Source: a candidate division WS6 bacterium OLB20 | GTDB lineage: Bacteria > Patescibacteriota > Dojkabacteria > B142 > OLB20 | DNA: 64,000 nucleotides | Direction: 5' to 3' | NCBI GenBank assembly: GCA_001567355.1 | Contig: JYNZ01000002.1 | Span: forward strand, 199,477-263,476 | In this document: positions 33,308-41,373 of the stretch, piece by piece | How the letters are laid out: every line of letters begins with the position of its first letter | How positions within the stretch are numbered: position 1 is the stretch's first letter | Notes under the pieces: model-generated | Told to the model about the DNA's origin: nothing | The model's database searches: none | Seen by the model: only the letters and a program-made list of their open reading frames with translations | Made by a program: the position numbers and the translations under genes

Positions 33308-33769
33308 ATGCTGTGTCCGTTTTGTCATAAAGACTCAAACAAGGTTATCGATAAACGCGATAATAACGAGACTGGTGTAACCAGAAGAAGGAGAGAATGT
33401 CTTATCTGTACAAAACGCTTCACCACCTACGAACGAATCGAAAATATCAGCCTGCATGTTGTAAAGCGAAGTGGCAAAATAGAAGAGTTTGACAGGGAAA
33501 AACTCAAACGCGGTGTAACAAGAGCAGTAAAGAAACGGCTGATCCCCGAATCTGTCATTGACGAAATGATTGATGATATCGAGCTGAAGCTTCTCAACAG
33601 AAAGACAAGTGAAATAAAATCCACGGAAATCGGAAAAATGGTTCTGACACGACTAAAGAAAATCGATACTATCGGTTATCTTCTGTTCGCTTCCGTATAT
33701 CGCGACTTTAACTGCATCGCCGACTTTGAGGAGGCAATAGCAGAACTTAAACATGTTACTTCCACTTAA
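33308..33769 (+). CDS. nrdR: transcriptional repressor NrdR
   Basis: Zn-ribbon MLCPFCH...RRRRECLICTKRFTTYE followed by an ATP-cone. 153 aa. Confidence 0.9.
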   Translation: MLCPFCHKDSNKVIDKRDNNETGVTRRRRECLICTKRFTTYERIENISLHVVKRSGKIEEFDREKLKRGVTRAVKKRLIPESVIDEMIDDIELKLLNRKTSEIKSTEIGKMVLTRLKKIDTIGYLLFASVYRDFNCIADFEEAIAELKHVTST

Positions 33770-33784
33770 TACATTTATTCAGCT

Positions 33785-40000: not shown

Positions 40001-41373
40001 AAGCATCACAGAAGATCGGTGAAGAAAAAGGCAGTTTCCCGGCATTTGAGGAGTCAGTCTGGAAGCAGCAGGGCAAGACCGCAATGAGGAATACCCGAGT
40101 GACCACCATTGCTCCGACAGGGACTATCTCCATCGTGGCCAATGTGAATCCAGGTATCGAGCCTGTATTTGCCTTGGGGTTCAGACGCAAAAACTCAATG
40201 GGGGGCACGGACCAGGAGGTAATCGATCATCAGTTTGAAACAGTAGCACGGGCACGAGGAATTTACTCAGATGAGCTGATGAAGAAGATCGCCGACGGTG
40301 CTCATCTGACAGCGTTGCAGGAGGAGTTTTCGATCCCCGCTGATGTTGTTGATGTGTTTGTAACAACGCACGAAATCGATCCCGAAAAGCACGTTCAGAT
40401 CCAGGCAGCATTCCAGAAATACGTGGACAGTGCGGTATCAAAGACAATCAATCTTCCCAAAACAGCTTCATGGCAGGACATAGCCCGTGTATATCAACTG
40501 GCGTATGATCTGGGTTGTAAAGGCATCACTGTCTTCAGGGATGGTTCCAAGGATCCTGCGCTGCAGGTCGGTACCGTTGAGAAAAAGACCGAGCCGGCAG
40601 CAGAAGTCAGGATTGAAGCCAAAGCAGGTGCTGCACGCAACTCTCTCAGCCCCAGAAAACGTGATGAAGTTGTGCGCGGACTGACAACAAAGGTCCGGAC
40701 AGAACAGGGTGAACTGTTTGTCACCATCAACGAGGACGATGAAGGCATCGTTGAGGTGTTCCTGACCCTTGGTAAGAGCGGAAGCTACACAGCCGGCTAT
40801 ACAGAGGCTGTGGGACGTCTGGTATCAATGTCACTGCGTTCCGGTATCAAGCCGGAAGCTATCATCGATCAGCTTCTGGGCATCAGAACGTCAGCGCCTA
40901 CAATGAATCGCGGAGGACTGATTGTATACTCGGTACCCGACGCAGTCGCCAAGGTTCTAAAGAAACACCTGGAGGAGAAAAAGAACCAGATCCGTCTGCT
41001 TCCGGAGGATGATGCTCAGACAAGCAAAATCGAGCAGGTGATAGCAGAGGTTACAACAGAGAGCCGCCCGCTTCAGCCCGCAAAGCTTGAAACGCAGGAG
41101 GTAATCGAAGAGGTGATCATTCAGAACAGCAAACCTGTTGCTCAGACAGCACCTAAGCCGCAGCCGCAGGTTACCGTCACAGAAAAGAAACCGGAACCTG
41201 TAAAAAGAGCTGATGAACATCTGCCGGCTATACTGAGCGGTATCGATACCAGCAAATACAGCAAACAGAATACAATGGGTGATCTGCTCGAATGCCCTGA
41301 CTGTGCTGGAGATCTTGAATACGCCGAAGGATGCATTTTATGCCGGAGCTGTGGTTACAGCAAATGCGGATAA
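37021..41373 (+). CDS. nrdJ: class II ribonucleotide reductase with two complete catalytic cores fused in tandem, plus a single C-terminal domain and Cys-rich zinc-ribbon tail (1450 aa)
   Basis: Core A (aa ~1-590): [30 protein letters not shown]. Core B (aa ~625-1185): [30 protein letters not shown]. Each ends in [13 protein letters not shown] or [13 protein letters not shown]. Only core B continues into the NrdJ C-terminal domain and CPDCAGD...[13 protein letters not shown]. Confidence 0.85.
   Translation: [1450 protein letters not shown]

Follow-up and report, generated by a model that had tools for sequence, protein, structure and literature searches.

DNA precursors can be made de novo by ribonucleotide reductase (RNR) only, and a single active site that handles four substrates through a conserved loop 2 belongs to the textbook paradigm of this enzyme. 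The present analysis concerns a class II RNR (NrdJ) locus at positions 33308-41373 of a 64 kb stretch of DNA (contig JYNZ01000002.1; the whole analysed stretch is hereafter referred to as the window) from candidate division WS6 bacterium OLB20 (Dojkabacteria, Patescibacteria/candidate phyla radiation, CPR). The locus harbours three NrdJ cores, one of which is free-standing and tail-less (nrdJ-S, here S), while the other two are fused in one large protein (nrdJ-AB, here AB, with cores A and B) that is 100% identical to a protein of this organism and carries a C-terminal cysteine-rich domain (CRD).

In the NrdJ enzymes described so far the CRD is a C-terminal domain of 150-220 aa ending in six conserved zinc-binding cysteines, all of which are needed for turnover with tris(2-carboxyethyl)phosphine (TCEP), and the domain is also required for the formation of tetramers and hexamers (PMC5704485). 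In the higher oligomers of Stackebrandtia nassauensis NrdJd the CRD passes electrons between subunits; no CRD-less NrdJd was found in a genome lacking a CRD-bearing one, and in Pseudomonas aeruginosa the CRD is a separate protein, NrdJb (PMC5704485).

The enzymes encoded by the window resemble S. nassauensis NrdJd and Thermotoga maritima NrdJ in the catalytic core, in its motifs and in the tail composed of a TSCPD domain and six cysteines. The latter enzymes, however, are homodimers with one core and one tail per chain, whereas here three diverged cores, two of them fused, are accompanied by one longer-tethered tail, and each has a non-canonical loop 2. The likeness to NrdJa and NrdJb of P. 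aeruginosa lies in a CRD-less core being served by a CRD on a polypeptide encoded alongside; in that system the CRD is a free-standing small protein, whereas here it forms the C-terminus of a second, two-core enzyme. The split NrdJa/NrdJb-like arrangement proposed in the initial annotation is thus an analogy and not a membership: the sole six-cysteine finger in the window is fused to core B, and no free-standing CRD gene was found in the window or in any of the nine loci described below. The NrdJd pairs of some Frankia and a few Alphaproteobacteria likewise combine a CRD-less NrdJ with a CRD-bearing one, but these are single-core proteins of the same subclass that were noted in passing, with no fusion, operon coupling or loop-2 divergence reported (PMC5704485). 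The last comparable case is the Lactobacillus leichmannii enzyme RTPR (NrdJm), in which the specificity site of the dimer interface is built within one chain (PMC3267527). There an insert of ~130 aa mimics the helices of the partner, whereas here a complete second core is fused, and the scores of S (69.7) and AB (91.5) with the NrdJm model TIGR02505 lie far below its cutoff of 340.

Literature searches combining NrdJ or class II RNR with CPR, Patescibacteria or Dojkabacteria returned nothing on a three-core architecture. In the preprint of Burnim et al. on RNR phylogeny the term "tandem" is used for ATP-cones only, and the published companion does not contain the word. The individual parts, namely NrdR, the NrdJ core, the CRD and Nudix, are known. 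What is new is that two diverged cores are fused in tandem, that a third, tail-less core is obligatory, that three cores have a single long-tethered CRD between them, and that three fixed loop-2 variants replace a near-universal one.

Three NrdJ cores and one zinc finger

The three NrdJ cores recognised within 8 kb in the initial annotation are indeed present at the positions given below, with matches to the NrdJ-specific hidden Markov model (HMM) above its cutoff, and a regular-expression scan of all six frames of the window yielded exactly these three cores and one six-cysteine finger. With TIGR02504 (NrdJ_Z, cutoff 399.95 bits) S scores 591.7 bits and AB 1249.3 bits, while PF02867 has one match in S and two in AB. 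Both proteins thereby belong to class II NrdJ, in keeping with the finger-loop N-x-C-G-E and the redox cysteine pair that are present in all three cores. Enzymes of this class use adenosylcobalamin (AdoCbl) as radical generator, with no beta subunit or activase, which S and AB would presumably do as well; public annotations name these proteins adenosylcobalamin-dependent ribonucleoside-diphosphate reductase.

S (33785..35578, + strand) is a single core of 597 aa in which only the all-alpha and barrel domains of RNR (PF00317 and PF02867) are found, and its best match among solved structures is T. maritima NrdJ (1XJE, E = 1.4e-103). The motifs AACYVLP, NQCGEQ and ACNLGS are all retained, and Cys104, Cys286 and Cys297 correspond to C134, C322 and C333 of the T. 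maritima enzyme. There are four cysteines in total, none of them near the C-terminus, and the protein stops a few residues past the ...TIYRDKSRDQQVL strand. The six-cysteine finger is absent from all 113 full-length S-type proteins (573-618 aa), which end at the same point, so the earlier description of the standalone core as tail-less and equipped with its catalytic motifs stands.

AB is encoded by 36933..41373 (+ strand), the full gene as delimited from homologue N-termini and a frame correction discussed below, the longest open frame being 37021..41373 (1450 aa, two complete barrel domains and TSCPD). Within the latter, core A (aa 1-570, 37021..38730, motif SSCFVLP) is separated from core B (aa 600-1187, 38818..40581, motif SKCLVLP) by a linker of ~29 aa (38731..38817) that is predicted to be disordered, since the AlphaFold2 (AF2) per-residue confidence (pLDDT) is below 50 for aa 570-599. 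Core limits follow the two HMM domains. A TSCPD domain follows (aa 1226-1317, 40696..40971; PF12637, E = 6e-21), then a low-complexity tether of ~105 aa (40972..41292) and finally the six-cysteine zinc finger, or redox shuttle (aa 1425-1449, 41293..41370), found by regular expression as C-x2-C-x9-C-x2-C-x2-C-x4-C-G, a motif that matches the CRD of Loderer et al. 2017. With ~260 aa the tail of AB is longer than a typical CRD, yet, after the TSCPD domain, it ends in the six cysteines that define one. S has neither the domain nor the cysteines, so that AB alone is CRD-bearing.

Between the end of the core and the first cysteine of the finger lie 205 aa (median) in 115 double-core proteins, as against a median of 140 aa in 56 single-core NrdJ (Mann-Whitney p = 1e-25), the extra length lying in the low-complexity stretch after TSCPD. 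A long tether is what one would expect if one finger must reach several active sites.

Lacking C-terminal cysteines, S, which keeps its redox cysteines, would need an external reductant after each turnover. The reading that we favour, and consider moderately probable, is that S and AB assemble into a single hetero-oligomeric class II RNR whose three cores are all active and where the long-tethered CRD of AB re-reduces S in trans. The finger of AB would thus reduce the active-site disulfide of S within the hetero-oligomer and would re-reduce A and B in cis. Reduction in trans is inferred from the facts that the only nearby CRD, which always accompanies S, is on AB and that inter-subunit transfer by a CRD is established in a relative; it would fit the published inter-subunit electron transfer as well as the reported restriction of CRD-less NrdJd to genomes with a CRD-bearing partner (PMC5704485).

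Conservation of the arrangement in Patescibacteria

The best 120 matches of each of two protein searches, with S and with AB as queries, were considered together with nine distinct loci, i.e. the window, the neighbourhoods of six double-core proteins spread over the diversity and two genomes from a GTDB scan. Almost all of the best 120 matches to AB are double-core proteins of 1370-1670 aa with 47-77% identity, whose named carriers are Dojkabacteria, Kerfeldbacteria, Parcubacteria and 'Patescibacteria group', and the six-cysteine finger is terminal in 115 of the 116 that have two full cores. The best 120 matches to S are proteins of ~573-618 aa and a few fragments, of which the 113 full-length ones were analysed. 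The fusion and the gene order recur in independent assemblies (NCBI, JGI, ENA, Logan), and some Patescibacteria, e.g. Buchananbacteria, have an ordinary single-core NrdJ-CRD instead.

The co-occurrence of this gene order in related genomes, which the initial annotation had put forward as a check, was borne out: a tail-less core lies directly upstream of AB in all nine loci (window, L001, L003, L005, L007, L008, L087, L088 and L089), and no free-standing TSCPD gene is present in any of them. The AB proteins are 48-68% identical to that of the window in the five loci measured directly, and in most loci S is as conserved as AB or more so (72% vs 56% in L003, 53% vs 50% in L005). In seven of the nine (window, L001, L003, L007, L008, L087, L089) nrdR is located 5' of S. 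The interval between S and AB is variable. It amounts to 25 nt in L005 and 18 nt in L089, with no gene in between, and is occupied by a 53-aa ORF in L003, by a single Nudix gene in L087, by the genes for a small protein (orf148) and a tandem Nudix protein in the window and L007, by a DnaQ-like exonuclease gene in L001, by a gene for a 205-aa unknown protein in L088 and by two unrelated genes in L008.

In L005 (14408-14944) and L089 (12318-15058), which represent two distant lineages, a gene for a cobalamin adenosyltransferase of the CobA/CobO/BtuR type lies directly 3' of AB; none was seen adjoining the operon in the window. Such a neighbour would fit a dependence on AdoCbl. In L089 the adenosyltransferase gene is followed by genes for DUF4430, DUF6580 and dCTP deaminase, the first two of which we presume may be cobalamin-binding or uptake genes.

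The same data bear on the alternative that S and AB are two independent isozymes that merely share an operon, S being a self-sufficient homodimer reduced by a small thiol or a redoxin. S indeed keeps the canonical start of helix alpha-B (S189-F-M), which is compatible with an ordinary homodimer, and its identity to ordinary single-core NrdJ (~47%) exceeds that to A or B (40-42%); in the L001 lineage the S slot is occupied by a quite different tail-less core, and CRD-less NrdJ were found throughout the tree by Loderer et al. (PMC5704485). The strict adjacency in nine of nine loci and the complementary distribution of the finger (0/113 against 115/116) are, however, hard to explain for unrelated isozymes, and the truncated S. 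nassauensis enzyme is active only with dithiothreitol and not with TCEP (PMC5704485). Moreover, CPR genomes measure about 1 Mb, and a second, independent RNR that shares its class and cofactor with the first would seem wasteful in them. Taken together, these points leave the two-isozyme explanation somewhat unlikely.

Phylogeny of the cores

In protein sequence S shares 39.5% identity with A and 41.5% with B, and A and B are 41.0% identical; no meaningful nucleotide similarity was detected among the three cores. A neighbour-joining tree with 100 bootstraps was constructed from 25 S, 26 A and 26 B sequences together with 39 ordinary single-core NrdJ that represent many phyla of bacteria and archaea. 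It recovered S, A and B as monophyletic groups (97%, 78% and 81% bootstrap, respectively), and the unrooted split of A and B from S and ordinary NrdJ received 92%, while ordinary NrdJ stood apart from S, A and B together in 100% of replicates. Since the tree has very short internal branches and no reliable midpoint root, conclusions were confined to the unrooted split and the monophyly of the three groups. Mean identity is 0.40-0.43 between paralogues and 0.46-0.48 between each paralogue and ordinary NrdJ, and S, A and B share a derived Asn to Gly change in the otherwise invariant PNSP..NAG motif. The phylogeny that had been called for, of the three cores against reference NrdJ sequences, thus shows each core as a clan of its own and the three as old paralogues; the earlier interpretation as an old duplication and not an assembly repeat holds, given identities of 39.5-41.5%, the lack of DNA similarity and the separate clans. 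The simplest reading of the sequences would be two old duplications in an early lineage of Patescibacteria, the second of them followed by fusion and then by faster divergence.

That the arrangement is a product of artefact or decay, i.e. that S is a remnant of a larger gene or that the three cores reflect a repeat in the assembly or a segmental duplication of recent date, appears scarcely credible. The point in its favour is the presence of two 1-nt frameshifts within 1.3 kb in this copy of the operon. It is contradicted by the lack of DNA similarity, the conserved orf148 after S, the common end of S-type proteins and the recurrence in independent assemblies. Cores without DNA similarity are not an assembly repeat, and both this possibility and a recent segmental duplication were ruled out by that observation together with the separate clan formed by each paralogue. 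A truncated remnant of a frameshifted gene was likewise rejected for S: translation of the region 35575-36019 in all three frames shows an unrelated, Cys-free protein, and the end point common to 113 S orthologues also contradicts the idea. Being conserved, free of cysteine and unrelated, orf148 is not the lost tail of S.

Active sites, effector pocket and loop 2

In an alignment of 113 S, 116 A, 116 B and 77 ordinary cores, numbered after T. maritima NrdJ, each of the four groups has the thiyl Cys322, Asn320, Glu324, the redox pair Cys134/Cys333, Asp141 and Arg171 conserved to 100%. The residue at position 158 is mostly basic (Lys or Arg in the consensus), and most of the glycine-rich loop 1 and of the APTG phosphate loop is kept. 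Asp141, Lys158 and Arg171 are taken by us, after the structures of Larsson et al., to act in the effector pocket.

Loop 2 relays the allosteric effector signal to the base of the substrate, and in T. maritima K202 and Q203 are the residues that read the substrate (PMC3267527). In the 77 ordinary NrdJ this loop (T. maritima 202-211) is nearly invariant, K(0.99)-Q(0.87)-G-G-x-R-R-G-A-N, while the canonical form is absent from S, A and B, each of which has a variant of its own that is strongly conserved inside the paralogue. The canonical loop is a conserved trait of the NrdJ family and not one that formally defines it. S has N-R-G-A-V-R-H-A-G-H, one residue longer, with neither Lys202 nor Gln203; A keeps Gln203, mostly without Lys202; and B ([RKQ]-[GT]-[RK]-G-G-R-x-x-G-S) is basic at 202 and lacks Gln203. 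The start of the interface helix alpha-B differs as well, being S-F-M in ordinary NrdJ and in S (S189), H-F-I in A, where the His is conserved to 100%, and E-Y-L in B. Loops 2 that are specific to each paralogue suggest that substrate or effector preference may differ between the three sites.

Changes of this kind could also mean that one or two of the cores are non-catalytic, serving as regulatory or scaffolding pseudo-enzymes that give a dimer interface and an effector site; inactive Rnr4 in yeast and the interface-mimicking insert of monomeric L. leichmannii RTPR are parallels. Of the 174 canonical positions with at least 95% conservation, 114 are retained in S and 107 each in A and B, so that about 35-40% have changed per paralogue, the PNSP..NAG motif and loop 2 among them, and a fusion that fixes a heterodimer would suit a pair of one active and one regulatory core. 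A dead core, however, should lose some of its catalytic residues, whereas the thiyl Cys, the redox Cys, Asn320, Glu324 and the APTG loop are invariant or nearly so in more than 110 sequences per paralogue, so that this explanation is distinctly improbable. Judged by these residues, none of the three cores looks decaying or purely structural, which suits the favoured hetero-oligomer with three active cores.

Proposed organisation of the enzyme

In the proposed hetero-oligomer S, A and B would each reduce ribonucleotides. A and B, covalently joined, would form a heterodimer where NrdJ is usually a homodimer, and this would fix two non-equivalent specificity sites, and the three loops 2 would give the three sites different substrate or effector preferences. 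The AF2 model of A and B (aa 1-1195, from an alignment of 84 sequences) has confidently predicted cores (pLDDT 87.6, that of core A mostly >85), while the predicted template modelling score (pTM) is 0.55 and the linker is disordered.

Several points weigh against this proposal. No direct evidence of contact between S and AB emerged from this sequence analysis, and the native reductant of any CRD is unknown (PMC5704485). The AF2 model of aa 1-1195 contains no confident A:B pseudo-dimer, and covariation between columns of A and B, calculated as mutual information with average product correction (MI-APC), gave no specific interface coupling. Interface and loop-2 columns are enriched among the top MI-APC pairs, but their joint count equals the product of the marginals, so that the signal is phylogenetic and does not reflect contact. 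The long tether is a trait of one clade and hence, despite the small p value, one evolutionary event. The tail-less core of L001 is only 47% identical to S of the window, though AB of the same locus is 68% identical; this suggests that the S partner is swappable or freely evolving and argues against a very intimate, co-evolved complex. Either a replacement in the S slot of L001 or very fast evolution of its occupant may account for this. Finally, the two 1-nt frameshifts lie in the operon copy of the window, within 1.3 kb of each other, and this copy would be damaged if they are real mutations.

The tail-less core of L001 (7421-9975, P0014 lineage) has an altered glycine loop, WDAAAGIDYS, and the DnaQ-like 3'-5' exonuclease gene (DNA_pol_A_exo1) of this locus is situated between it and AB.

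A further step, for which the loop-2 sequences offer a hint and which we regard as unlikely, would be that the four ribonucleotides are divided among three dedicated sites in one hetero-oligomer, with one long-tethered finger serving them all. Such an assembly would be, e.g., 2 x (S + A-B), i.e. six cores as in the NrdJd hexamer. To our knowledge the rule of one allosterically controlled active site for all four RNR substrates has been universal so far, and a division of substrates among three sites would, if true, depart from it.

The architecture is conserved in several lineages of Patescibacteria. With three diverged sites, a fixed heterodimer and a shared tail it would represent a natural experiment in the sharing of specificity and electron delivery, as well as a ready-made system for the study of trans-acting CRD chemistry. 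Patescibacteria are mostly uncultured organisms with genomes of ~1 Mb that depend on salvaged nucleotides and B12. The ~6 kb spent on three RNR cores imply strong selection and point to the supply of B12 and ribonucleotides as key host dependencies.

Operon structure and regulation

Every real gene of the locus lies on the + strand, and the genes are closely packed, with a gap of 15 nt between nrdR and S, two ATGA overlaps and a gap of 34 nt between the Nudix gene and AB. The locus is a single operon, which is probably repressed by NrdR. The ORF coordinates agree with those given in the initial annotation, as does its gene order as far as nrdR, S, the Nudix gene and the double-core gene are concerned; two revisions concern the limits of the small ORF, which is the 5' part of a gene for ~148 aa, and the start of the large gene.

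The operon is headed, as had been proposed, by nrdR (33308..33769, + strand), which encodes a transcriptional repressor of RNR genes with both a Zn ribbon (PF22811) and an ATP-cone (PF03477) and reaches 161.2 bits with TIGR00244 (cutoff 124.65). A candidate NrdR operator was located at 33220..33267 (+ strand). It includes the box ACACAATAAATTGTTG at 33220-33235, 73 nt 5' of nrdR, which has 3 mismatches to what we take, together with the spacing of tandem boxes, to be the NrdR box consensus, ACACWATATATWGTGT. A weaker candidate box, CCACAAGAAGTTGTGC, read by eye, starts 32 bp downstream of the first. The box at 33220-33235 is the sole match to ACACWATATATWGTGT with at most 3 mismatches in the 64 kb, while 46% of shuffles give at least one match; the count of matches is by itself not significant, and it is the position upstream of nrdR that is suggestive. 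If the candidate boxes are the NrdR operator, the operon would be autoregulated.

Upstream of nrdR, and divergent from it, the - strand carries a gene of the Mur-ligase family (31655-32965), with Mur_ligase Pfam domains found in its counterparts in L001, L003 and L088, followed by a 117-aa ORF with no Pfam match (31169-31522) and a HIT-family-like ORF (30736-31119), the latter judged by eye and by its counterparts. The gene order of 30736-32965 is repeated in other loci and represents a synteny block conserved in Dojkabacteria.

Genes between S and AB and two frameshifts

The first gene after S, orf148 (35575..36022, + strand), encodes a small Cys-free protein of unknown function and was delimited by three-frame translation and by its L007 homologue. 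Its start overlaps the stop of S and its stop overlaps the start of the Nudix gene (ATGA in both cases). The 81-aa ORF 35575-35820 is the 5' part of this gene, the frame being broken by a 1-nt deletion near 35795; the rejoined protein of 149 aa shares 38% identity, along its whole length, with an intact 146-aa ORF at L007 6409-6849. The rejoined protein contains no cysteine, and no credible Pfam match was obtained for it.

The Nudix gene (36020..36898, + strand) codes for a two-domain protein, with PF00293 matching in two stretches (E = 1.8e-19). The Nudix boxes were compared by alignment with E. coli MutT and the homologues of L007 and L087. The box of domain 1, KEIKEETGI, has R changed to K and keeps the catalytic glutamates of the Nudix box pattern G-x5-E-x7-R-E-U-x-E-E-x-G-U, while in domain 2 (36470-36898), RTVFQQTGV, EE is replaced by QQ and the glutamates are lost. 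The second domain is degenerate in L007 as well (~7295-7701, LKILSETQI), i.e. a pseudo-Nudix fused to an apparently active one is conserved. A tandem-Nudix gene with two Nudix-fold halves is therefore present between the cores, as noted initially, but its second domain is catalytically degenerate and the gene is optional, a Nudix gene being found in three of the nine loci.

An additional domain of ~200 aa, similar to Ham1/ITPase (PF01725), is inserted in the linker between A and B in 15 of the 116 double-core proteins, including P0006, P0066, P0070, P0072, P0073, P0075-P0077 and P0079 as well as the protein of L088 (8001-12821). In these 15 the linker measures 197-209 aa between the HMM envelopes, as against -2 to 55 aa in the other 101 homologues. 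The insert places a fold of non-canonical-NTP pyrophosphatases within an RNR. The sporadic occurrence of Nudix, Ham1 and exonuclease genes in the operon hints at a loose connection with sanitation of the nucleotide pool; such genes are not core parts of the system. Most plausibly, orf148 and the Nudix gene are lineage-variable accessories for such sanitation.

The second frameshift concerns the start of AB. Public annotation of the protein (P0001, 1450 aa) begins at 37021, and homologues, which are intact at the frame break, have ~30 further N-terminal residues (…DLFDPKVSANSLEIMKKRHLL); a matching peptide is encoded in another frame from 36933. The true start is the ATG at 36933, one extra A in the A5 run 37003-37007 breaking the frame. 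With one A removed AB becomes a protein of 1479 aa that is 82% identical to P0002 and aligned with it from residue 7. Both frameshifts may be sequencing errors or real lesions, and neither touches S or the A-B junction. Indel errors throughout the assembly were considered as their source, but this idea is unsupported: the other overlapping same-strand ORF pairs of the window are separate genes.

Other NrdJ proteins encountered in the searches

A contig scan with S as the single query, whose patterns were too generic, detected mostly ordinary NrdJ of other phyla and served as a source of outgroup sequences and not as a census. Many of the archaeal NrdJ of this outgroup have no six-cysteine CRD and end in a short ...AESEYAGGCPTKTCPFP tail with one cysteine pair (L015, L017, L018, L023, L043, L050, L062 and L075 of Bathyarchaeia, and L027, L044 and L072), which is a different C-terminal redox solution. 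Among the NrdJ representatives P0245-P0387 many proteins that are 1000-1600 aa long align with S in two to four separate segments, which typically break near residue ~283 of S, just before N-x-C-G-E. This is the pattern expected for intein-containing NrdJ and not for double cores. After clustering at 50%, only P0089 and P0241 among the matches listed indicate a double-core protein by length and match positions.

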